Origin: Candidatus Fervidifonticultor secundus
GTDB taxonomy: Bacteria; Sysuimicrobiota; Sysuimicrobiia; Sysuimicrobiales; Humicultoraceae
DNA length: 64,000 nt
Assembly (NCBI GenBank): GCA_031459385.1
Contig: JAVKIP010000003.1
Location: forward strand, 1 to 64,000
Direction of reading: 5' to 3'
Part shown: piece after piece, positions 7,597 through 20,374 of the stretch
Layout: every line of letters starts with the position of its first letter
Position numbering within the stretch: the stretch's first letter is position 1
Notes under the pieces: generated by a model
Told to the model about the DNA's origin: nothing
The model's database searches: none
The model's input: only the letters and a program-made list of their open reading frames with translations
Made by a program: the position numbers and the translations under genes

Positions 7597-8460
7597 CTAC
7601 ACTGCCCGCTGCCGCAGGCCCGGATTCAGCCAGGCTTCGAAGTCCTGTCCGATGATCGCCAGGGCCAGGGTGACGGCCGCGATCGCCAGGGCCGGCGGCA
7701 GCGCCCACCAGGCCCACGCGGTACCTACGAACAGCAGCGGATAGGCGAACGCCGTCTGCAGGATCATTCCCCAGCTTGGCTGCGTGGGGTCGCCGAGCCC
7801 CATCAGGGCCAGGACCGCTTCCATCACGATCGCCCACCGCAGCGTCAGCAGGAACTTCGTCCACAGCACCGGCAGGATCTCCGGCAGCACGCACGCGCGA
7901 AAGACGCGCATCTCCGTAGCACCCAGCGCCCGGGCCGCTTCCACGTAGTCCCGCTGGATGGCCCCTGCGACCTGGGTGCGCACCACGCGAGCAAATGCCG
8001 GCCAGCTCAACACCGCCAGCGCCGCCACCAGTTGCGTCGGCCCCGGGCCCAGCAGGGACACGATCAGCACGATGACCGGCAGGTTCGGAATCGCCATGAG
8101 CCCTTCGGTGGCAGCCAGGAGTGGCAGCCGGGCAGGCCGCCAGAGGACCGAGAGGGTCCCCACGGCTGCCGACAGCAGCGTCGAGCACGAGGCGGCCAGG
8201 AACCCTACTGCCAGCGAGCGCCTGGCGCCGTGCAGCAGCAGGCTGAGCAGGTCCTGGCCCAGGTCGTTCGTCCCCAGGCGGTGCGCCCCCGACGGCGCCT
8301 CGATCGGCGCCCCGACGATCGCCCGTGGAGGATACGGCGCAAGCGCGCCGGCAACCAGCGCAACGAGCACCGTCCCGGCCAGGACTCCAGCGGCCAGCAG
8401 CGACGCGGTGGGCCGCCACAGGCGTCGTCGAGGGAGGGCCAGGGGAGCGACCGCGCTCAT
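7597..8460 (-). CDS. Ni/peptide ABC transporter permease (DppC/NikC-like)
   Basis: HRLGTNDLGQD, YVEAARALGA, PSWG; last gene of the hydrogenase operon. Confidence 0.9.
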   Translation of the reverse strand: MSAVAPLALPRRRLWRPTASLLAAGVLAGTVLVALVAGALAPYPPRAIVGAPIEAPSGAHRLGTNDLGQDLLSLLLHGARRSLAVGFLAASCSTLLSAAVGTLSVLWRPARLPLLAATEGLMAIPNLPVIVLIVSLLGPGPTQLVAALAVLSWPAFARVVRTQVAGAIQRDYVEAARALGATEMRVFRACVLPEILPVLWTKFLLTLRWAIVMEAVLALMGLGDPTQPSWGMILQTAFAYPLLFVGTAWAWWALPPALAIAAVTLALAIIGQDFEAWLNPGLRQRAV

Positions 8461-8479
8461 CCCCGCGGCTGCCGCCTCC

Positions 8480-9469
8480 TCAGCCCTGTGCCTGTCGAAT
8501 CCGGGGGTCGAGGAGGCTCGCGGCGAGGTCCAGGGCTACGTTGACCGCGACGATCACCACGCTGGCCACCAGGAAGACGCCCTGCATCACCGGGTAGTCG
8601 CGCCGGACCACCGCTTCGAACAACAGCAGGCCCATGCCGGGGTACGCGAAGATCCGCTCGACCAGCGCCGCGCCTGTGATCGCAAACGCCAGGCGCAGCC
8701 CGAGCAACGTGAGGACCGGCGGGAGCGCGTTGCGCCACGCATGCCGCAGCACGCCGGCTGTCCCCAGGCCCTTTCCCCTGGCCGTCAGCAGGTACCGCTC
8801 GCCCAGCACATTGGCCAGGGCGTTCCTCGAGAGGAGGAAGAACGCCGGGGTCAGACCGGCTGTCAGTGTGGCACCCGGCAGGGCCGCGTGCAGGAGGAGA
8901 TCCCGCGCCGCGGCCAGCGGCCCTCCGATGCCCGAGACCGTCAGGAACGGCGTCATGGCGCCCCCGACGGGCAGGAGCCGCAGGCTGGTCCCCAGCAGGA
9001 CGATCAGCGCCATTGCCACCAGGAACTCGGGCAGGGCACCCAACCCGATCACGAGCGGGCCGAACAGGCGCGTGCCGATGCCGTCAGGTCGCCAGGCGGC
9101 CGCGGTTCCCAGGGCTATCCCCACCACGGCCGCGATCAGCACCGACGAGCCCACCAGGAACACGGTCCACGGGAGCCGCTCCGCGATCATCTCCACGACC
9201 GGCCGGTGCGTGGCCAGGGATCGGCCCAGGTCGCCGCGGGCGAGCCCGCCCAGGTAGCGGAGGAACTGCTCGGACAGCGGCCGGTCCAGGCCGTAGGCCC
9301 GGCGGATCTCCTGGAGCGTGCCCGAAGGCAGGAACGCACTGGTGGCCTCACCCGCCGCGCTGCTCAGCGGGCTTCCCGGCAGCAGGCGCGGGAGCAGGAA
9401 GTTGACCAGCACCAGCGCCCCGAGCAGGGCCGCGAACCGGCCCAGATGCCCACGGGCGGCCGCGCTCAT
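8480..9469 (-). CDS. Ni/peptide ABC transporter permease (DppB/NikB-like)
   Basis: YGLDRPL..QF..Y, GDLGRS, TARGKGL, FAYPGMG, RDYPVMQG. Confidence 0.9.
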   Translation of the reverse strand: MSAAARGHLGRFAALLGALVLVNFLLPRLLPGSPLSSAAGEATSAFLPSGTLQEIRRAYGLDRPLSEQFLRYLGGLARGDLGRSLATHRPVVEMIAERLPWTVFLVGSSVLIAAVVGIALGTAAAWRPDGIGTRLFGPLVIGLGALPEFLVAMALIVLLGTSLRLLPVGGAMTPFLTVSGIGGPLAAARDLLLHAALPGATLTAGLTPAFFLLSRNALANVLGERYLLTARGKGLGTAGVLRHAWRNALPPVLTLLGLRLAFAITGAALVERIFAYPGMGLLLFEAVVRRDYPVMQGVFLVASVVIVAVNVALDLAASLLDPRIRQAQG

Positions 9470-9474
9470 GGAGA

Positions 9475-11025
9475 TCAGCGGGCGAGAAACGCCAGCTTGT
9501 TGTCCGCGTGCGGGATCCCGTTCATCACCCCACCGCGGGTCGCGATGGGGCTGAACTTCCGGCTGTCGTAGATCCAGAAGAACCGGCGGTAGTACAGCGG
9601 CAGGGTCGGCAGCTCCTCGGCCAGCATCACCTGCATCTGGTCGATGAGGCGCCGGCGCTGCCCGGCATCGAGCGTCCGCAGCTGCAGGCGCGCCAGGCGC
9701 AGGTATTCGGGCGAGCGCATCCGGCTGCCCCGCGCGAACAGGTTGGCCTCGTCGCCGGTAAACCAGGTCCGCAGGTAGTCGGGGTCGCCGCCGCTCCCGG
9801 TGTGCAGGGTCAGCAGTATCTGGAAGCGCCCCTCGCCGCCCAGGTGCGCGCGGGTGGCCGGGTCTACCGTCCGGAGGCGGAGGTCGACGCCGACAGCCTT
9901 CAGCATCTGCTGGACGAACTCCACGTCCCGGATCGGCGTGGACACCAGCTCGACCACCAGGCGGTCGCCGTCGCGGTCCTCCAGCCAGCCATCACCGTCC
10001 CGATCATCGTAGCCGAGTTCGCGCAACAACGCCCGGGCGCGGGCCGGGTCGTACGGGTACTCGGGAACACGGGGGTTGTACCAGGGATCGGTCGGCGGGA
10101 TCACCCCCGCGCTGCCGACCGGCGCGGGCCCACGGGTGATCGTCTCCCCGATGCGTCTGCGGTCCAGGGCATGAGCCACGGCACGGCGGAAGGGCCGCAT
10201 GCTGGTCGGAGCGCGCTCCAGGTTGAACAGCAGACGGGCAACAGACAGCGGCTCGGTCTCCAGCACCCGCAGGTAGGGATGCCCCGCAAAGGCCCGGACC
10301 ACATCGTAGGTCGTGGCCATCGCCTGATCGATCTGCCCGGTCTGGATGGCGAGGACCTGCCGCTCGGTGGGCGTCACCGTGTAGTGGACCTCGTCGATGC
10401 GGAGCCGCCCTTTGAAGTAGCCCTCGAACGCCGTGAAGCGATACGCGCCCGCCTCCGGCCGGTAGTCGGCGAGCCGGTAGGGCCCGGAGCCGACCGCCAT
10501 CCTCGTGTCCTGCTCCCGCTCGGGATGCTCGATGCCCCGCCAGATGTGCTCGGGGATGATGGGGACGACGCCGGCGATGTTTTCGAGGAACGGCGCGTAG
10601 GGCTGTGCGAGCCGGACGACGACCGTGCGGCGGTCGCGCACTTCCGCCTTCGTGACGATAGACGTGTCCACCCACCGGAACGGATGCCTCCGGTAGTAGT
10701 CAAAGGAGAACTTCACGTCGTGGGCAGTCAACGGCTGGCCGTCGTGCCACTGGACCGGCCAGTGGAGGGTGAACACGTAGGCGGTGCCGTCCGGGCTGGT
10801 CCGCCAGGAGTCGGCCAGCCAGGGGATGAGTCCGCGCTCGTCCTTCCATACCAGGGTGTCGTAGATGAAGGAGAGGCGGACGATGCCTCCGGGGCCCAGG
10901 GTCGAGAAGGCGAAGGGTGTGGGGAAGCCGACATCGGTCCACCAGGTGAGCCGCAGCACCAATGGCTGCGCCGCGGCCGGCAGGACCAGCAGGATGGGCA
11001 GGATCAGGACAGGCGCGACCCTCAT
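9475..11025 (-). CDS. ABC transporter substrate-binding protein, family 5 (probably nickel)
   Basis: Signal peptide, IYDTLV, WHDGQPLTAHDVKFS, GSGPY; overlaps the DUF6390 gene. Nickel specificity is inferred from context only. Confidence 0.85.
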   Translation of the reverse strand: MRVAPVLILPILLVLPAAAQPLVLRLTWWTDVGFPTPFAFSTLGPGGIVRLSFIYDTLVWKDERGLIPWLADSWRTSPDGTAYVFTLHWPVQWHDGQPLTAHDVKFSFDYYRRHPFRWVDTSIVTKAEVRDRRTVVVRLAQPYAPFLENIAGVVPIIPEHIWRGIEHPEREQDTRMAVGSGPYRLADYRPEAGAYRFTAFEGYFKGRLRIDEVHYTVTPTERQVLAIQTGQIDQAMATTYDVVRAFAGHPYLRVLETEPLSVARLLFNLERAPTSMRPFRRAVAHALDRRRIGETITRGPAPVGSAGVIPPTDPWYNPRVPEYPYDPARARALLRELGYDDRDGDGWLEDRDGDRLVVELVSTPIRDVEFVQQMLKAVGVDLRLRTVDPATRAHLGGEGRFQILLTLHTGSGGDPDYLRTWFTGDEANLFARGSRMRSPEYLRLARLQLRTLDAGQRRRLIDQMQVMLAEELPTLPLYYRRFFWIYDSRKFSPIATRGGVMNGIPHADNKLAFLAR

Positions 11026-11777
11026 CGTTCAAGGATCACCGCGCCCCGGCGCTGCTCGTTGGTCAGCGCGAGGTGGTGACGCGTGTACTGCACGAGGAAG
11101 CGCCGTTGCCGCAACGTCAGGACGTGGCACGCGCAGCCCCAATGGATCGCGACGGTGTCGCCGGGTCTGACCTGGGAGACGAGCGCCTTGCCGCCGAAGC
11201 GCCGCAGCACGCGGCGCGGCGCAGGGGACCCCAGGGCCAGTGCATCGCCCTCGAGCACGAGCGGGCGGCGCTCGACCAGCAGGCCGTCGCCGTCTTCTGC
11301 CAGCACCCGGCCCCACGAGATGCGGCACTCGTCGAGGGTCTCCAGGGTGTGGGGGATCTCCAGGTGACCGGTGCGGATCGGCATGCTGAGCACGTGGAAG
11401 TTGTGGTGGGGCCGCGCGCCCCTCGGCACGATGCCCAGCACCGCCTGCAGCACTCTGGGCGGGAAGCGGCGGCCGAACCGGTCGGACAGGTGCCGGTGCA
11501 GGTCGTGCAGTTCCACGTTCTCAAGCAGCTCGTTGCCGATCCAGTAGGCCTCGATCACGCGCACGTCGAACGGGTCGCCGATGCCGTTGGCCGCCGCGAT
11601 GAACGAGTAGTAGGGGAAGGCGCCGGCAAAGCGCGCCAGGATCTGCGCGAGCCCGCGGTCGGCGGCCCCCGCGGCCACGTAGTCGAGCATCGCCCGGTTC
11701 TCCTCCGGCCCGCAGTAGCCCAGGCGGTTGGGCATGAAGGAGAAGCGCGCGGCCAGCAGCGCGCCGGCCTGGCTCAT
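11022..11777 (-). CDS. DUF6390-like hydrogenase-associated protein
   Basis: RFSFMPNRLGYCGP, VIEAYWIGN, PHHNFHV, DECRISWG, VAIHWG motifs; adjacent to hypC. Confidence 0.75.
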   Translation of the reverse strand: MSQAGALLAARFSFMPNRLGYCGPEENRAMLDYVAAGAADRGLAQILARFAGAFPYYSFIAAANGIGDPFDVRVIEAYWIGNELLENVELHDLHRHLSDRFGRRFPPRVLQAVLGIVPRGARPHHNFHVLSMPIRTGHLEIPHTLETLDECRISWGRVLAEDGDGLLVERRPLVLEGDALALGSPAPRRVLRRFGGKALVSQVRPGDTVAIHWGCACHVLTLRQRRFLVQYTRHHLALTNEQRRGAVILER

Positions 11778-12058
11778 CCCTCACCCTCCCCTGCGGCGGG
11801 GACGTCCGCGACGGCCGGCGCGAGCTCCCCTTCGAACATCTGGCTCACCTCCTCCAGCAGCCGCATCGTCTCCCGTGCGGTCGCCTCGTCGATCTTCTCG
11901 ACCGCGAACCCCACCTGCACCAGCACCCAGTCGCCGGGGAGGACGTCGGGGAGCATGGCCAGGTTCACCAGGCGCGGGGTTCCGAGCACGTCGACCCGCC
12001 CGATCCGCCTGGCCTGGTCCACGATCTCCACGATGTGTCCAGGCACTGCGACGCACAT
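11774..12058 (-). CDS. hypC: Hydrogenase maturation chaperone HypC/HybG/HupF
   Basis: MCVAVPG N-terminus, PGDWVLVQVGFA; 94 aa. Confidence 0.93.
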   Translation of the reverse strand: MCVAVPGHIVEIVDQARRIGRVDVLGTPRLVNLAMLPDVLPGDWVLVQVGFAVEKIDEATARETMRLLEEVSQMFEGELAPAVADVPAAGEGEG

Positions 12059-12060
12059 GG

Positions 12061-12921
12061 CTATCCCACCGCCACCTGCACCTGGCCCTGCTCGATCACC
12101 ACGGGCACATGCTCCAGCACCAGGGTGGGATCGCTCAGGCTGCGGCCGCTGCGGAGATCGTAACGCTCGCCGTGGCAGGGGCAGACCAGCACGAACGCCT
12201 CCAGCGTCGCGCCCTGCAGTGAACCGCCACCGCGCGGGCAGCGGTCGCGCACGGCGTAGATGCGGCCGAACGCGGTGGCCAGTACGACCGCGGTACCGTG
12301 CAGGAGGAGATGCTGGACGCCATAGGAGAACTGCTGCACCGGACCGAGGTCGTTCCATCGCCTCGCCTTCTCGACGGCTTCCAGCGGCACGAAGGCCTCG
12401 CCGGCGCGCACAGCCGGCAGGCCCTCGACTTCGATCCCCCGCAGGTCCGGCACGGCGTCCCTGAGCACCTGCTCGATCCCCATCTTCAGGGTGAGCAACG
12501 ATGAGCCGCAGCCGTGGCAGGCGCCCTGCAGCCGCAGGCGCGCCACGCCGTCCCGCACGTCCAGCACCTCCACGTCGCCGCCATGCCCGTGCATGTAGGG
12601 CCGGACCCGGTCGAGCGCGGCGCGCACCCTGGCCTCCGGCGCCTGCGCCGGCCCATCGAGCAGGCCATGCTCGGCCAGCAGCACCCCGACCACGGGATCG
12701 CCACGCAGCACCTCCAGCACCCGTGCGCCCTCCGGGGCGTTGCGCAGCAGCATCACGATGCGAAAGAGCGCGTCGTGGTGCAGGTGCATCACGGCCTCCG
12801 AGACGTCGAGCACCAGGTCGTGCACGGCAGGATCAGGATGTGCCTCGGCCCGTCGGAACAGGGTCTCCAGCGCCTCCGTGAAGGCGACCGGATCGTCGAT
12901 GGGGGGAAAGCGGCGGCTCAC
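12061..12921 (-). CDS. NifU-like plus Rieske-like domain fusion (Fe-S carrier for hydrogenase)
   Basis: VRPYMHGHGGDVE..LQGACHGC (NifU) followed by DRCPRGG...VCPCHG..YDLRSG (Rieske-like); GTG start overlaps the upstream stop. Confidence 0.85.
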   Translation of the reverse strand: MSRRFPPIDDPVAFTEALETLFRRAEAHPDPAVHDLVLDVSEAVMHLHHDALFRIVMLLRNAPEGARVLEVLRGDPVVGVLLAEHGLLDGPAQAPEARVRAALDRVRPYMHGHGGDVEVLDVRDGVARLRLQGACHGCGSSLLTLKMGIEQVLRDAVPDLRGIEVEGLPAVRAGEAFVPLEAVEKARRWNDLGPVQQFSYGVQHLLLHGTAVVLATAFGRIYAVRDRCPRGGGSLQGATLEAFVLVCPCHGERYDLRSGRSLSDPTLVLEHVPVVIEQGQVQVAVG

Positions 12922-13412
12922 GGGCGCTCGCGGAGCAGGATGACGATGCGCTCGACGGCCCGATCCACCGCCGCAGCCACTGGCGCGGAGAGCGTCATCG
13001 TCATCTCTTCGAGGGTCTGCGGCTCGCACCCGACGATGAGCGTCTCCCTGGGCAGCGCTCCCAGCGCCCTGGCCAGCAGCAGGACGCGCGACGGCGTCGT
13101 GGTGTGCGGATCGCCGACGAGCGCTCCCACCTCATCCGCCGGGAGACCGTTCAGGTCGGGCAGCTCCGGCCGCAGCACCACCACGCTTCCGGGCGGCTTC
13201 CCGCAGTGGACGGCATCGACGAGGACGATGAGATCGTAGCCGTCGAGCAGGTCCTGCACGAGCGGGATGCCGCCGATGCCCGCGTCCACCACCCGCACGC
13301 CCGGTGGGAGGTCGGCGCGCTGCCGCAGCCGGCGGACGACCTCGATGCCGAAGCCGTCGTCGCCGCGCAGCACGTTGCCGATGCCGGCCACGAGAATCCG
13401 CGGGGCCGTCAC
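12918..13412 (-). CDS. Hydrogenase maturation endopeptidase (HybD/HycI family)
   Basis: GIGNVLRGDDGFG, VDAV, DPH; canonical metal ligands are intact. Confidence 0.92.
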   Translation of the reverse strand: MTAPRILVAGIGNVLRGDDGFGIEVVRRLRQRADLPPGVRVVDAGIGGIPLVQDLLDGYDLIVLVDAVHCGKPPGSVVVLRPELPDLNGLPADEVGALVGDPHTTTPSRVLLLARALGALPRETLIVGCEPQTLEEMTMTLSAPVAAAVDRAVERIVILLRERP

Positions 13413-14305
13413 GGGGTTCGAGCGCCTCCCCGTGTCGGGCCGCGGCGCACGCACTGCGCCGGGTCACCGGTGAGGTGGCAGTCGCACTCAGGATCGTTGC
13501 ACTCGCCGTGGCCCTGCCGCAGCAGCGGCGCGAACTCCTCCACGAAGCGGCGCCGGCCCTCGTTGCGGCCGACCACGCTCAGGCGGTAGCGGCCAGGCTC
13601 GGTGCCGGCGGCCTCCAGGTAGCCCTGGCGGCGCAGCGTCTCCAGGTGGCCGGCGATGGCGGCCTCGCCGACGCCGACAAACGGCGTGAGGTCTGCGGGC
13701 CGCACGTCCCTCGCCAGGCCCTCCCCTTCCATCCAGTAGAGCACCTGCAGGATATCGTCGCGCTGGCGCAGGGCCTCGACGGCGGCGCTCCCGGCGGCGT
13801 CCCCACCGAACCCGCCTTCGCGGCCCAGAGCGTCGCGCACGGCCTCGATCGCCGGCGCCACCGCCTGCTCGACGGCGAGGCTCAGACCGTCGCCCCAGCC
13901 CAGGTCGTGGGGCTCGACCTCGACCACCTCGACGTCGCGCGGCAGCACGCCGAACTGCCTGGCAATGACGAGCAGGTTGTCGAGGCTGATCGTACCGCCC
14001 AGCGCCTCGCCCACGCGCTCCTGCACCTCCGCGGGATCGGGCAGCACGCCCGTCGGGCAGTACCGCACGAGCGTGCCGGCCAGCCGCCGGCCGCGCGGGA
14101 CCGCGCCGACGAACACGATGCGGTCATAGGGCTGCTCCTGCCAGCGATGCACGAGCGCGATGGGTGCATAGGAGAGATCCTCCACGTCGACGCCATCGAG
14201 CCAGGGGGCGCCCCGCAGGCGATCGACCACCAGCGGCCCGAACGCCAGGTCGCGCGTGAAGCGGTAGCCCACGCCCCCGACGAGGACGCGGGGCCGGCCG
14301 GTCAT
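13409..14305 (-). CDS. Degenerate hydrogenase maturation protease-fold domain fused to a winged-helix-like domain with a Cys/His-rich tail
   Basis: N-terminal RVLVGGVGYRFTRDLAFG...EVEP...GDGLS..VE.AV; C-terminal RDDILQVLYWMEGEG...HGECNDPECDCH..C. Confidence 0.75.
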   Translation of the reverse strand: MTGRPRVLVGGVGYRFTRDLAFGPLVVDRLRGAPWLDGVDVEDLSYAPIALVHRWQEQPYDRIVFVGAVPRGRRLAGTLVRYCPTGVLPDPAEVQERVGEALGGTISLDNLLVIARQFGVLPRDVEVVEVEPHDLGWGDGLSLAVEQAVAPAIEAVRDALGREGGFGGDAAGSAAVEALRQRDDILQVLYWMEGEGLARDVRPADLTPFVGVGEAAIAGHLETLRRQGYLEAAGTEPGRYRLSVVGRNEGRRRFVEEFAPLLRQGHGECNDPECDCHLTGDPAQCVRRGPTRGGARTP

Positions 14306-14312
14306 GGCCCGG

Positions 14313-16190
14313 TCACCCGTCGACCTCGCAGGCGCACGTGTTCACCTCGCGGGTAATGACGCGGTTGGCATCGGCTACGGCGATGTGCGTGGTGCACGGC
14401 ATGCACGGGTCGAACGACCGGATGGTGCGCAGGATGTCGATCCCCTTGAAGTCGTCCGGGCCCGAGAATGTCTCGAGGATCGGCGTGTTCAGCACAGCCT
14501 CCTCGTAGGCCCCGCCGTGCCCCCACGGGTCCTTCGGCGAGGCGTTCCAGGTCGAGGGCGTGAGGATCTGATAGTTGGCCACGGTCCCGTTCTCCAGCAC
14601 CAGGTGGTGCGTGAGGTACCCGCGCCCCGCGCCCCAGAAGCCGGCACCGATCCGCTGCCCGCGCCGGGGGATCGCGAACCGGCTGCTCACGCGCGTCTCC
14701 CCCTTCTTCAGGTAGTCGAGGCCGCGCAGCCAGTTGTCCATGGCGACGAGGGCCGTGTACGGGATGCAGTACGCCCGGCCGCGGTTGCGCTCGAACGCAT
14801 TCCAGACGTCGGGGATCTTCCAGGCCATCACCGTCTCGGGTCGGGCGCCCGCCGGCAGGCGCAGGACGAGGCTCCTGCCCGTTGGCTCGATGAACGTGCT
14901 CGTCGGCAGTTTCCGCGCCGCTGCGGTGAGCCACATGCGCGCCGTGCACTCGGCCTCCATCACCCGGCGGTCCCAGCGCGGCGAGGTCGCCCACGAGTAC
15001 TTCTCCTTCCACGACTGGCCGACCGGCTTGGGCTTCGTGTCGCGGTTCCACATGTGATGGGGGCTGAGCGGGTTGCCCGCAGGATCGACCGGGAAGCGCT
15101 GCCCGTCCCAGGGCTCATAGTACGAGTGCTCGACGAACTCCTCGATGCCGATGTTCATCGCCTGGAGTTCCGTCGTGACGACCTCGCCGTCGACGATGAC
15201 GCCAGGGGTGGCCCAGCGCCGCTGGCCCCACGCGTTGCAGTTCGTGTAGGTCGCGTCGTACGCCTCCGGATCATCCCAGATGCCGGGGTCGATCAGGGTG
15301 GCCGGCCGCGCGCCCACCTGCCTGTAGCGCGGGTCGGCGCCGTAGAAGAACTCGACGAGATCATCCCAGAACGGTACGACCTTCTTGGCGTAGTCGAAGA
15401 ACTGCTGCAGGCGCACGTAGATCTGGTTGAAGGTCGAGAGGCTGACCGTGACGCTCATGCCGCCCGGCACGACCGTTTCGGGGTGCGGGTACTTGCCGCC
15501 GATGAGCACGTAGGCCTCGCGGGCCACGCGCGTCATGTGCAGTGCCTCCAGGTAGAGCTTCCCGGTCAGCGGGTTCAGATCGACCATCATGTCCCCGATG
15601 GTCCGGTAGCCGTGCAGATGCCCGCGGGGTGCCTCGGTGTGCTGCGCGCGCTCCCAGAGCTCTGGATTCGTGGTGGAGACGATGGCCTGCGAGTAGTCGG
15701 GCCCGGCGAGCAGAAACAGGTGCAGGGGGTGATCGTAGAGGAACTCGAGCGCCAGGAGCAGGTTGCGCATGACGATCCCCAGCGGCGGCGGGACGACGCC
15801 GATGGCCATCTCCATCGCGAGCGCCGCGGTGGTGGCGTGGACGCCGCCGCACACGCCGCAGGCACGGCTGGTGATGAAGAGGGCATCGCGCGGATCGCGG
15901 CCCTTCATGATGACCTCGTAGCCGCGGAACAGCGTGGCCATCGAGGCCGCGGACAACACCCTGCGCTCCTTGAGGTCGGCTACGGCGTGGAAGGCCAGCG
16001 CGCCGGCGACGCGCGTGACCGGGTCGAAGTCGACCGCCTTGATGTGGCCGTTGCGCCGCAGCAGCTCCTCGATGCGCTCCTCTTCTGTCGCGATGGGCGT
16101 CGCCTCGTACGCGTAGGGGTTGCGGACCTCGGGCCGCAAGAACGCCCGGCCCGTCGCGTCGAACTCAATCGGGAGGTTCTTGAAGCACAT
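14313..16190 (-). CDS. [NiFe]-hydrogenase large subunit, group 1l-type (HylL-like)
   Basis: FDPVTRVAG, L1 motif TSRACGVCGGVH, L2 motif RSFDPCMPCTTH, plus a 23-aa cleavable C-terminal tail. Confidence 0.95.
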   Translation of the reverse strand: MCFKNLPIEFDATGRAFLRPEVRNPYAYEATPIATEEERIEELLRRNGHIKAVDFDPVTRVAGALAFHAVADLKERRVLSAASMATLFRGYEVIMKGRDPRDALFITSRACGVCGGVHATTAALAMEMAIGVVPPPLGIVMRNLLLALEFLYDHPLHLFLLAGPDYSQAIVSTTNPELWERAQHTEAPRGHLHGYRTIGDMMVDLNPLTGKLYLEALHMTRVAREAYVLIGGKYPHPETVVPGGMSVTVSLSTFNQIYVRLQQFFDYAKKVVPFWDDLVEFFYGADPRYRQVGARPATLIDPGIWDDPEAYDATYTNCNAWGQRRWATPGVIVDGEVVTTELQAMNIGIEEFVEHSYYEPWDGQRFPVDPAGNPLSPHHMWNRDTKPKPVGQSWKEKYSWATSPRWDRRVMEAECTARMWLTAAARKLPTSTFIEPTGRSLVLRLPAGARPETVMAWKIPDVWNAFERNRGRAYCIPYTALVAMDNWLRGLDYLKKGETRVSSRFAIPRRGQRIGAGFWGAGRGYLTHHLVLENGTVANYQILTPSTWNASPKDPWGHGGAYEEAVLNTPILETFSGPDDFKGIDILRTIRSFDPCMPCTTHIAVADANRVITREVNTCACEVDG

Positions 16191-17392: not shown

Positions 17393-17689
17393 CTAGGCTC
17401 GCGGCCCCGCCGGTGCCTGCAGCGCCTCGGCGATCTCCTCCGCGTGCCTGCGGATGGACTTCGCCGTCTCACGCAGGTCGAAGGCGACCGCGTTCGTGCT
17501 CTCGAGCGTCCAGATGACCTGCGTGTGCTCCGCGATCTTCCCCACGGCCTGATGGCACCGCAGGGCGGCCCGCGCGATCCTGCGCGCCGTGACCATCACT
17601 GCGATGAGCAGCGCGGCCACGACGGCGACGAGCACCCCGGCGATGCCGAGGATCAGGTACCACTGGCTCAGCAGCTCGGCGTCGGTCAC
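17393..17689 (-). CDS. Short single-TM hydrogenase-associated protein 1 (HylTM-like)
   Basis: 98 aa; GTGA overlap with the small-subunit stop; TM plus helical tail. Confidence 0.8.
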   Translation of the reverse strand: MTDAELLSQWYLILGIAGVLVAVVAALLIAVMVTARRIARAALRCHQAVGKIAEHTQVIWTLESTNAVAFDLRETAKSIRRHAEEIAEALQAPAGPRA

Positions 17690-18975
17690 GCGTGACCCTC
17701 CCGCTTGCGATGCTTCTGATAGGGCACCTCGTAGCCGCCCGGGTACATCTCTTCGGGCCTAGTACGGCCCGGCCGCTCCGCAGCGTGGAACTGCCACTTC
17801 TCGTAGAAGAAGTGGATGAGCCGCTGCAGCGCCGACGGCTCCGTGACGTGACCCCAGCCGCTGGGGACAGCGCCCGCCTCGTCCCAGCGCGGCTCACGGT
17901 TCTGGAACTGCATCGAAATCCGACGCAACGGCCGGATGAACACGCCGGTGACCATGGCGGGCTTCGTGGAGAGGACCGCGCCCGGGGGGGTCTGATAGAA
18001 GGGCGAGAATCGGTCCGGGAACCCCGGCATCGTGCACCCGATGCAGACGCCCCCGACGCTCATGCAGCCGCCCATGTGGTTGATGGCACCGCGGCTGGTG
18101 ATGTTGCACTGGACCACCGGCCCCCAACACCCGATCTCGACCAGACACTCCTTGTCGCCGTAGCGCTGTGCGAACGACCCTTCCTCGTAGTATCCGGCGC
18201 GCACGCACTGCCGGTGGACGGTCTCGCGGAACAGCCACGCCGGCCGCCCCAGTTCGTCGAACTCGGGCAGAGGCCCCAGCCCCTGCAGGAAGAGCAGGAC
18301 CGCAGCCACGGTCTCCGTGAAGTTGTCCCCGACCGGCGAACAGCCGGGGATGTTGATGACCGGCAGGCCGAAGGCGCTGCGGAAGTCGCGGCCCAGGAAG
18401 TCCATCACGCCCATCGCGCCGGTCGGATTCCCCATCGCGGCCGGAATCCCGCCCCACGTCGCGCAGGTCCCGATGGCGATCACGGCTGCCGCCTTCGGCG
18501 CCAGGCGCTTCAGCCACTCCGAGGTGGGAATCGGCCGGCGTGTGCCGTCGGGCATCACCTCGACCCCGAGTGCGGCCCAGTAGCCGCCGGTCTCCGCGGC
18601 GACCGACTCGTCCGGCACCGACCCTTCGTAGATCACGACGAAGGGGGCGCCCAACTTGCCTTCCTCCGCCAGCCGGAAGTTCTGGACGAACTCCTCTCCG
18701 GCCTCGACCGAGAGCACCGGATGGTGCAGGATCAGCTTCGGCATCGCCGGGATGGTGCCGGTCAGCAGCCCTTCCACGCCGGGGCTGGTGGCTCCCGACA
18801 CCGCGATCGTGCAGCCGTCGCACGACATCCCTGCGAGCCAGAACGCGTGCACGACCCGCAACGGCCCCAGCGGCAACTCCTGGGGCTGCGGCTTCGGCTC
18901 GCGCTCCAGCACGATCCGGGCCGTGGATTCCAGCGTCTGCTCGGGGAGCATCGTGGGGGGGCTCGTGGTGCCCAT
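17686..18975 (-). CDS. [NiFe]-hydrogenase small subunit (HylS-like), no Tat signal
   Basis: WLAGMSCDGC, AIGTCATWGGIPA, NIPGCSP, VHRQCVR, CLVEIGCWGP, CMSVGGVCIGCTMPGFPD. Confidence 0.95.
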   Translation of the reverse strand: MGTTSPPTMLPEQTLESTARIVLEREPKPQPQELPLGPLRVVHAFWLAGMSCDGCTIAVSGATSPGVEGLLTGTIPAMPKLILHHPVLSVEAGEEFVQNFRLAEEGKLGAPFVVIYEGSVPDESVAAETGGYWAALGVEVMPDGTRRPIPTSEWLKRLAPKAAAVIAIGTCATWGGIPAAMGNPTGAMGVMDFLGRDFRSAFGLPVINIPGCSPVGDNFTETVAAVLLFLQGLGPLPEFDELGRPAWLFRETVHRQCVRAGYYEEGSFAQRYGDKECLVEIGCWGPVVQCNITSRGAINHMGGCMSVGGVCIGCTMPGFPDRFSPFYQTPPGAVLSTKPAMVTGVFIRPLRRISMQFQNREPRWDEAGAVPSGWGHVTEPSALQRLIHFFYEKWQFHAAERPGRTRPEEMYPGGYEVPYQKHRKREGHA

Positions 18976-19013: not shown

Positions 19014-19817
19014 TTAGCCGGCCGCGCCACCCTCCAGCAGCGCCGCCAGGTGCGCAATCGCCTGCACCCCGTGGGCCTCGGGGGCCACGTCCAGCGGCGC
19101 CCGGCCCTGGCGGTCAGCCCCTACCAGGGCTGCGTCATAGGGAATCGTGCCCAGCAGCCGCAGCCCGTGCCTGCCGCAGAACGCGCGGACGGCTTCGGCG
19201 TCCTCTGCGCCCTGCACCTTGTTGGCCACGGCGAAGATCCGCGGCACCCCCAGCTCGGCCGCGAGGTCACAGATCTTGCGGCCGGTCTCCAGCGACTTGA
19301 AGTAGGGCTCGATGACCGCCACGATGGTGTCCACGTGGCGCGGGGTGCCGCGGCTCAGGTGCTCCAGCCCTGCCTCCATGTCGGCGACCGTTGTCGCGGT
19401 GGCGGCGCCGACCAGGGCGGCGATCAGGCTACGCACGGTAGCGTGGGTACGGCACATTCAGCCCGCCCCGGCATGGTCCACGCGGCCCATCAGCAGCAGC
19501 GTCACGTTGTCGGGCGCGCGGACACCGTACCGCCGGAAGATCTCCTCGGGAGGCGCAGCCAGCACCGCGCGCTGCACGCCTGTCTCGTCCGTCCGCTGTT
19601 CCAGGAGCGTGCGCGGCAGCGGTTGGAGCCTCTCGGCCTCGTCCGGCGGAATCCCCAGCGTGATCGCCAGGTTGGGGTTGGAATCGCCGTCTATGGCGAT
19701 GACGCGGTGGCCACGGCGCGCCAGCACCCGCGCCAGCGTGCCGGCGATGGTGGTCTTCCCCGACCCACCCTTGCCGCAGACCGCGATGCGCTGGGCGCCG
19801 TCTTGATCCGTCCCCAT
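19014..19817 (-). CDS. CooC/AcsF-like Ni-insertion ATPase with in-frame UGA at 19458-19460 (candidate selenoprotein, ~267 aa)
   Basis: GKGGSGKTT, AIDGDSNPNL, LLLMG...HAGAG-UGA-MC, DMEAGLEHLSRGT, VANKV; the two track ORFs (19458..19835 and 19014..19457) are in frame with zero gap. Confidence 0.85.
19425..19445 (-). promoter_or_regulatory. Candidate bacterial SECIS hairpin
   Basis: CA-C-GCTAC[CGTGC]GTAGC-C-TG; the apical loop begins 20 nt after the UGA and has G at loop position 2. Confidence 0.5.
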
Positions 19818-19982
19818 CGTCACGATGCCTCGCACTCCGTATGCATCGTACTGGCGGACAGATTCCTCGCGCTCTGTGCAGGCAGTTCCCGACCTTCGTG
19901 CAGAGTGGGTTCGCCCATGAACGCCCCGTGCCCTGCCGGCCGCCGGGCGTGGGAGCTCGAGCCGCCTTTTGGTCGCGGGAGG

Positions 19983-20000
19983 GTATTAGCTCGCTAATAC
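19983..20000. promoter_or_regulatory. Perfect 8-2-8 palindrome GTATTAGC-TC-GCTAATAC, probable operator
   Basis: AT-rich inverted repeat between the divergent hydrogenase operon and the XRE gene; a TATAAT -10 lies at 20038-20043. Confidence 0.75.
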
Positions 20001-20053
20001 GACGACCATCATCTTCGCGCCTGCCACCTCATCGGGCTATAATGGTCTGGCAC

Positions 20054-20374
20054 ATGGCGAATCTGCAGATCAGCGAGAGCATCCGGCGTGCGCGGCAGGC
20101 GCGCGGGCTGACCCAGGCCGAGCTGGCTCCCCTCATCGGGGTGACCCAGGGGGCGATCTCCTCCTGGGAGCAGGGGAATGAGTCCCCCTCGTTCGTGCAC
20201 ATGCTGAAGCTGCTGCTCCATCTCCCCGAACTGCGCCACACCCTCGCACGGGAACAGGTTGACCTGCTGGTGCGCGTCGAGCGCGCGCTCTTCGCAGACC
20301 GCTGCACGTGTGACGACTGTTCGTGTCACACCCTGGACTCGCCCGCGCCCACCTTGCCGCCGGGCCCGCGATAG
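20054..20374 (+). CDS. XRE-family HTH regulator with C-terminal CxCxxCxCH motif
   Basis: IRRARQARGLTQAELAPLIGVTQGAISSWEQG..SP; tail RCTCDDCSCH; TATAAT 10 nt upstream and no SD, so near-leaderless. Confidence 0.88.
   Translation: MANLQISESIRRARQARGLTQAELAPLIGVTQGAISSWEQGNESPSFVHMLKLLLHLPELRHTLAREQVDLLVRVERALFADRCTCDDCSCHTLDSPAPTLPPGPR

Follow-up and report, generated by a model that had tools for sequence, protein, structure and literature searches.

In the first 64,000 nucleotides (nt) of contig JAVKIP010000003.1 of Candidatus Fervidifonticultor secundus (assembly GCA_031459385.1; this whole stretch is referred to as the window), two adjoining open reading frames (ORFs) on the minus strand appear to form a single gene for a CooC-like ATPase, in which an internal UGA codon is predicted to be read as selenocysteine (Sec). 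We put the probability of this reading as a whole, namely one Sec-containing CooC-like ATPase gene with a selenocysteine insertion sequence (SECIS) hairpin and a probable role in metal delivery to the adjacent [NiFe]-hydrogenase, at roughly 0.85. Its parts do not carry equal weight. Decoding of the UGA as Sec is strongly supported by comparison of homologous genes and is close to certain; delivery of nickel to the adjacent hydrogenase, argued by analogy with CooC, is only modestly favoured.

The mechanical ORF listing places an upstream ORF of 125 amino acids (aa) at 19835..19458 and a downstream ORF of 147 aa at 19457..19014, both in a common frame. Across their junction the minus strand reads CAT GCC GGG GCG GGC TGA ATG TGC CGT, with the TGA at window positions 19460-19458. 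When this codon is read as U, a single frame results that encodes 273 aa from a GTG at 19835 or 267 aa from an ATG at 19817, and the ATG is preceded by the sequence GAGG 10 nt upstream. We therefore describe the gene as 19014..19817 (minus strand), with the GTG at 19835 as an alternative start, and the in-frame UGA (19458..19460, minus strand) as residue 126 in GTG numbering, which is used below, or residue 120 in ATG numbering. Apart from this TGA, which would supply the first position of a U-x-C metal motif, the frame from 19835 to 19014 contains no stops or frame breaks. The original prediction, made from the letters of the window, was that two in-frame ORFs are joined across HAGAG-*-MC into a protein of about 267 aa with no other lesion, and that gene callers would split the gene; both statements hold, the second because mechanical calling does yield two ORFs.

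The read-through protein matches the Pfam family CbiA (PF01656, 5.6e-17), an assignment no more specific than the broad class of CbiA/MinD/ParA nucleotide-binding domains, and no NCBIfam model matched it above its cut-off. Its closest solved relative is CooC1 of Carboxydothermus hydrogenoformans (PDB 3kje), which aligns over residues 16-243 of 273 with an E-value of 2.5e-37, and the second-best solved match is far weaker (3.9e-08). Within the CooC1 stretch GGSQCYCR, C112 is matched by U126 and C114 by C128, such that UxC and CYC correspond column for column. A deviant Walker A motif, G-K-G-G-S-G-K-T, occupies residues 21-28 (19752..19775, minus strand), and G21, K22, G23, G24, G26, K27 and T28 are invariant in all 84 homologous loci that we compared (see below). 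Equally invariant in this set are G125, the second metal-motif cysteine C128 and, three residues beyond it, His131 (codons C128 to H131, 19443..19454; His131 itself, 19443-19445; both minus strand). CooC1 has Asn at the position of His131, and this residue, possibly an additional ligand of the metal, may distinguish the family from CooC1. The alignments thus bear out two further claims of the original prediction, that the protein carries the CooC motifs and that the UGA sits on the Ni-binding cysteine of CooC. According to parts of PMC6006190, Zn is held at the CooC1 dimer interface by C112 and C114 of each monomer, and it has to compete with Ni for this four-coordinate site, one Ni being bound per dimer with a dissociation constant of 0.4 µM.

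Two other identities for the ATPase were rejected. The genome, which is 97.6% complete, contains no match to PF03063 (Prismane/CooS), and since a CooS-family gene is missing from it the protein does not qualify as a CO dehydrogenase factor, that is, as CooC proper. The protein is not HypB either, as TIGR00073 is not among its matches and separate hypB genes lie on another contig (C13).

Evidence for recoding comes from the homologs. A within-phylum search of 41 genomes, including that of the window, recovered an ortholog in five of them, which belong to three genera and share 71-100% identity, and every one carries the in-frame TGA. The TGA column is identical in all five, within the consensus G-(A/V)-G-U-M-C-(R/G)-T-H-A-T-V-R-S-L; in one relative (G011) two TGA codons were counted, of which one lies inside the frame and the other seems to mark its upstream limit. 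When the search covered the whole class, whose 94 genomes make up the entire phylum, it returned the same five ortholog-bearing genomes and none beyond them. A further 18 weaker within-phylum matches (33-42% identity, 9 genomes) carry Cys, in the form GGAGCACPQ or GAGCYCAAN. Nine relatives (G004, G005, G007, G014-G016, G020, G021 and G029) have two Cys-type CooC paralogs each, about 8 kb apart (L027-L044), and these pairs perhaps belong to a CO dehydrogenase/acetyl-CoA synthase cluster.

To look beyond the phylum we assembled a set of 84 loci, consisting of the best 80 of 572 confirmed relatives from a bacteria-wide scan with one genome per species (an estimated ~2900 stretches) and four within-phylum loci; locus L024 was omitted because its contig is that of L045. 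The codon at the Sec site is TGA in 42 loci, TGC in 33 and TGT in 9, and TAA, TAG and frame breaks are absent from this site in all 84. By their record titles, the TGA rows span eight phylum-level labels, namely Armatimonadota (the NCBI label for the window's own lineage), Acidobacteriota, Gemmatimonadota, Myxococcota, SAR324, Chloroflexota, Verrucomicrobiota and Actinomycetota. The six full-length database entries that were examined, out of 120 listed, are all Cys forms and include an ortholog (P0002) with 69% identity; Cys homologs are entered in public records as ‘AAA family ATPase’, ‘P-loop NTPase’ and ‘CO dehydrogenase maturation factor/CooC’. We also built a maximum-likelihood tree from the 84 rows and 6 of the 18 paralogs as outgroup, using a quick search and support from the Shimodaira-Hasegawa-like approximate likelihood ratio test only. 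This tree separates the hydrogenase-linked family from the Cys-type outgroup paralogs with a support of 94 and requires nine changes between Sec and Cys, six of which are forced by well-supported branches. The alternation of Cys and TGA codons between conserved flanks that the original prediction had named as a check is therefore present, with 42 loci on either side and G125, C128 and H131 unchanged throughout.

The genome of the window encodes a complete set of components for Sec insertion. It has a tRNA with anticodon tca that scores 64.5 bits and is named tRNA-SeC by ARAGORN, as well as selA (549 bits), selB (368 bits) and selD (388 bits), and the tRNA gene lies on contig C12, approximately 2-4 kb from selB and selA. 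The selD gene (C1:104038-104961, outside the window) itself contains one in-frame TGA at the known GUxxK Sec site, in the context LVACAGUASK. Downstream of this UGA lies a 7-bp hairpin; its loop starts 35 nt from the U of the UGA and has the sequence CGUGC, identical to the loop in the CooC-like gene (see below). Matches to tRNA-Sec were found in all nine other TGA-bearing genomes tested, comprising the four within-phylum relatives with a TGA ortholog and five genomes of other phyla (57.5-73.8 bits). Two Cys-type Gemmatimonadales nested in a Sec clade gave no tRNA-Sec match. Among five Cys-type genomes tested there were two clear matches, two with none and one of 49.7 bits, which is the level reached by the tRNA-Ser of the window's own genome.

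The candidate SECIS element, GCTAC-CGTGC-GTAGC, was located at 19428..19442 on the minus strand, where a 5-bp stem (19442-19438 with 19432-19428) encloses the loop CGUGC (19437-19433). It spans 18-32 nt after the U of the UGA and its loop begins 20 nt past the A, in agreement with the spacing given in the original prediction. What exceeds chance is the pairing pattern seen on comparison. For this test we scored a six-pair helix, formed by offsets 18-23 and 27-32 from the U of the UGA, in the 42 TGA rows and the 42 Cys rows, which align in register because the region is free of insertions and deletions. In TGA rows 88.1% of the cells were paired, a value reached by none of 500 shuffles; in Cys rows 52.8% were paired, which 244 of 500 shuffles reached and which is hence level with shuffled sequence. 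When the partner strand was slid by 1-3 columns, pairing amounted to 30-43% in TGA rows and 29-46% in Cys rows. Two of the pairs show compensatory changes among the TGA rows, CG<->UA in nine rows and AU<->GC in nine rows, and these swaps link a synonymous to a non-synonymous change (Ala GCC/GCU with Gly GGC/Ser AGC; Thr ACN/Ala GCN with Arg CGU/CGC). An uninterrupted helix of at least 5 bp centred at the site is present in 37 of 42 TGA rows versus 11 of 42 Cys rows, and for the five TGA exceptions RNAfold gives bulged helices in four and a short 4-bp helix in the fifth. The core three pairs were recovered independently by RNAalifold from the 42 TGA rows. The covariation analysis thus favours a hairpin that is maintained in TGA genes.

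One group of sequences deserves separate mention. In a mostly proteobacterial clade with the motif H-R-A-V-R-G (Cys loci L071, L083, L092, L097 and L110; Sec locus L081), the codons CGC GCG GUG CGC GG are self-complementary, and for this reason the Cys genes of the clade carry the hairpin too. This could be either a pre-adaptation for gain of Sec or a relic of its loss.

The ATPase gene adjoins a [NiFe]-hydrogenase cluster that is encoded on the same strand. The small subunit gene (17686..18975; Pfam NiFe_hyd_SSU_C and Oxidored_q6) starts 39 nt downstream of the ATPase gene, and the large subunit gene lies at 14313..16190 (Pfam NiFeSe_Hases, 1.8e-74). Both Ni-binding motifs of the large subunit, RACGVCGGVH and DPCMPCTTH, contain Cys only, as had been claimed from the letters alone. 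Linkage to such clusters is common in the family: 72 of the 84 loci have at least one hydrogenase-cluster homolog within the flank examined, and 50 of the 84 have the small or the large subunit. The earlier description of the ATPase gene as heading the hydrogenase operon needs to be narrowed, since it applies to the window's lineage and fails elsewhere, the gene being at the far end of the cluster in many other loci.

Several observations weigh against parts of this reading and have to be set beside the evidence above. Taken by itself, the hairpin is no better than chance in G+C-rich DNA: the 50 nt after the TGA fold with -9.3 kcal/mol compared with a shuffled mean of -11.3 (z = +0.89), and 163 of 200 shuffled sequences gave a fold that was equally or more stable. 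The helices counted at the site in 11 of the 42 Cys genes are 5-6 bp long, RNAalifold keeps just three pairs in TGA rows at -1.51 kcal/mol, and an Rfam scan of 19380-19480 with E-values up to 10 gave three chance-level matches only and no matching family. The rows behind the hairpin statistics are kin, such that the numbers rest on related sequences, and a test of the link between Sec and hairpin in phylogenetically independent pairs was underpowered (6 pairs, median p 0.5). The capacity to make Sec does not force use of the Sec form, because three of the five Cys-type genomes tested match tRNA-Sec, two clearly and one at the level of tRNA-Ser. With regard to the metal, parts of PMC6006190 state that Ni is not bound tightly by CooC of Rhodospirillum rubrum, and Ni binding is accordingly not assured even in true CooCs. 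With regard to the client, the genome contains two adjacent hypB matches at the start of contig C13 (C13:4-1318), a partial large-subunit-like match further along the same contig (C13:4779-5330) and, on contig C14 (C14:45048-47713), a second full [NiFe]-hydrogenase. As hypB and at least one other [NiFe]-hydrogenase are thus present, canonical Ni insertion is available and the adjacent hydrogenase is a putative client of the ATPase.

We considered three ways in which the UGA might not encode Sec. If it were a genuine terminator, with the C-terminal half made separately from the ATG that follows, the two ORFs of the listing would be two genes, and the same arrangement, a TGA followed by ATG, occurs in 22 of the 42 TGA genes. 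In the other 20, though, the next codon is CTG, CTA, CTC, GCT or ACG, so re-initiation cannot be general; moreover, the stop is always TGA and never TAA or TAG, it always falls on the Cys codon, the halves keep a common frame, a split would sever the metal motif between its two ligands, and the TGA is accompanied by the hairpin and by Sec machinery. Together these points render a two-gene arrangement very improbable. Less probable still is a nonsense mutation, sequencing error or decaying gene, for which only the bare stop codon itself speaks, against a TGA that 42 loci share at this codon, in separate assemblies that bear eight phylum-level labels, that is kept in orthologs at 71-79% identity and that is flanked by invariant residues in a frame with no further lesion. 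The original prediction would have been in difficulty had the TGA been unique to this assembly, had homologs been interrupted by other stops or out of frame, or had the genome been devoid of Sec machinery; in each respect the data came out the other way. Finally, a suppressor tRNA might insert Cys or another residue in place of Sec, and the chemistry of the site evidently tolerates Cys, as in 42 homologs. A tRNA-ReC-type system is mentioned in part of PMC13582414. The tRNA with the UCA anticodon in this genome is, as described above, called as tRNA-SeC and encoded near selB and selA, and the genome has a selD gene that also contains an in-frame UGA, all of which leaves recoding by a suppressor with about as little likelihood as the two-gene split. 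Sec at position 126 is hence by far the best-supported assignment.

The cargo of the ATPase is a more delicate matter, and an unlikely yet serious alternative is that the protein is a true selenoprotein which does not supply nickel for the active site. It might then handle an iron-sulfur cluster, iron or another metal, or act at another step, such as assembly of the small-subunit clusters or quality control together with the neighbouring protease-like protein described below. NifH and Mrp/NUBPL-type ATPases bridge iron-sulfur clusters through cysteines, and these types, dimeric P-loop ATPases of the same class, are among the weak matches of the protein. The presence of hypB elsewhere in the genome, the gene for a NifU+Rieske fusion within the cluster, the invariant His131 that CooC1 does not have, the divergent protease-like gene as an immediate neighbour in many loci and the poor Ni binding of R. 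rubrum CooC (PMC6006190, in part) all fit this alternative. Against it stands the finding that the sole strong solved relative is a Ni-binding protein (CooC1, 2.5e-37, with the next match at 3.9e-08), that the U/CxC motif falls exactly on the Ni/Zn ligands of CooC1, and that 72 of 84 loci tie the gene to a Ni enzyme. On balance, nickel delivery remains the reading to which we incline, and because the genome also has hypB, a part of the ATPase in maturation of the adjacent hydrogenase is something that we infer.

On the preferred reading, the two ORFs would constitute one gene for a CooC-like P-loop ATPase of the MinD/ParA class. Its UGA at 19460-19458 would be decoded by the organism's own SelA/SelB/SelC/SelD system, with the hairpin 18-32 nt downstream acting as the SelB-binding SECIS element, and Sec would stand in for the first cysteine of the CxC motif. 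In CooC1 the motif binds a single Ni or Zn ion where the two monomers meet, and a dimeric form of the ATPase would accordingly offer a site of two selenium and two sulfur atoms, possibly helped by His131. The family would be a hydrogenase-cluster-associated sister of CooC that is distributed over many phyla and in which about half of the close members use Sec, and its likeliest role would be ATP-dependent delivery of a metal, probably nickel, to help mature the neighbouring [NiFe]-hydrogenase, which is Cys-only and group 1l-like.

The remaining genes of the cluster, all on the minus strand, give it a layout similar to that of group 1l. Between the subunit genes lie three small ORFs (17689-17393, 17381-17076 and 16707-16165) without a family match; the first two show hydrophobic stretches by eye, and their homologs are likewise placed in other loci. 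Downstream of the large subunit follows a divergent protease-like gene for 298 aa (13409-14305), which matches TIGR00072 in residues 8-160 only and has no Pfam match, in tandem with a gene for a HycI-type protease (12918-13454). Homologs of the divergent protease-like gene directly adjoin the CooC-like gene in many loci, and for this reason its product may be a functional partner of the ATPase. Accessory genes for a NifU+Rieske fusion (12061-13029), HypC (11774-12358) and DUF6390 (11022-11777) complete the cluster. In group 1l, several short ORFs for membrane proteins separate the small and large subunit genes, and a Rieske-type protein and a HupD protease are also encoded. The arrangement in the window, with three short ORFs between the subunits and NifU+Rieske and HycI-type protease genes after them, resembles the group 1l cluster layout as described in part of bioRxiv 10.1101/2020.08.06.239558.

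Two neighbours flank this region. A gene for an XRE-type helix-turn-helix protein (19841-20374, plus strand) is divergent from the ATPase gene, its homologs adjoin the ATPase gene in loci L025, L061, L074, L080 and L104, and its product may be a regulator of the cluster. Directly after the hydrogenase cluster, genes for an ATP-binding cassette transporter (7597-11025, minus strand) encode two permeases together with a solute-binding protein of family 5; importers of nickel and of peptides are among the members of this type.

A Sec form of this hydrogenase-linked sister family of CooC appears to be new. Full-text literature searches for a Sec-containing CooC-like ATPase found no description of one, and the 2026 table of 119 selenoprotein families and subfamilies (PMC13188914, Table 1) lists no ATPase of the CooC, MinD, ParA or CbiA type, its nearest entry being a CobW-related selenoprotein. 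The main texts of BSepDB (PMC13326102) and deep-Sep (PMC12013277) contain no mention of CooC, nickel, ATPase, MinD, cobyrinic or hydrogenase, and their supplements could list further families. If the assignment is correct, it would make a widespread addition to the prokaryotic selenoproteome, among P-loop metallochaperone ATPases for which the catalogue has one loosely comparable entry (PMC13188914), and it would expose a correctable annotation error, namely a gene that mechanical ORF calling splits in two. It would also connect selenium with hydrogen oxidation in a way that can be put to the test, as Sec-form genes occur in aerobic uptake hydrogenase clusters and their carriers include Gemmatimonadota, Acidobacteriota, Chloroflexota, Verrucomicrobiota, Actinomycetota, SAR324 and the hot-spring lineage of the window. 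The matched Sec and Cys forms would constitute a natural comparison from which to learn what selenium contributes at a site of metal transfer, in contrast to a redox site. We tentatively go one step further, to an extension that we hold to be plausible and somewhat short of an even chance: selenium may be a hidden need for the assembly of O2-tolerant, H2-scavenging hydrogenases in many bacteria of soils, the sea and hot springs, the ATPase being the first MinD/ParA selenoprotein and the first Sec-containing maturation factor for a metalloenzyme, with a Se2S2(+His) Ni site that withstands oxidation in air and passes its metal on to a Cys-only enzyme, and with repeated Sec/Cys switching that tracks access to selenium.

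Comparison with known systems helps to place the protein. CooC1 of C. hydrogenoformans (PDB 3kje, 3kjg, 3kjh and 3kji), which inserts Ni into Ni,Fe-CO dehydrogenase in an ATP-dependent manner, shares with the window ATPase the deviant Walker A motif GKGGxGKT and a metal motif at the equivalent place. The two differ in that the first ligand is Cys in CooC1 and Sec in the window ATPase, that CooC1 has Asn where the window family has the invariant His131, and that the window gene resides in a [NiFe]-hydrogenase cluster and not beside cooS. HypB is likewise a nucleotide-driven Ni-insertion factor for [NiFe]-hydrogenases. The ParA/MinD-family ATPase 3vx3, whose group we take to be the archaeal Mrp/MinD-type ATPase form of HypB, matches the window ATPase weakly (6.5e-05), and the match is limited to the P-loop region, residues 12-66. 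The CobW-related selenoprotein presumably belongs to the CobW/G3E GTPase family and not to the MinD/ParA class. It resembles the window ATPase as a predicted, nucleotide-dependent family of metallochaperone type with Sec in a Cys-rich metal motif, but this motif is UxxC as opposed to UxC, and no link to hydrogenase is stated for it (PMC13188914). With [NiFeSe] hydrogenases the window ATPase would have in common the use of Sec as a nickel ligand in hydrogen metabolism (PMC13188914); in those enzymes, however, Sec is located in the large subunit, whereas in the window it would be located in the accessory ATPase and the enzyme itself is Cys-only. Taken together, the protein is CooC-like yet lacks the association with CO dehydrogenase, and it is most fittingly classed with a sister family of CooC that is linked to hydrogenases.

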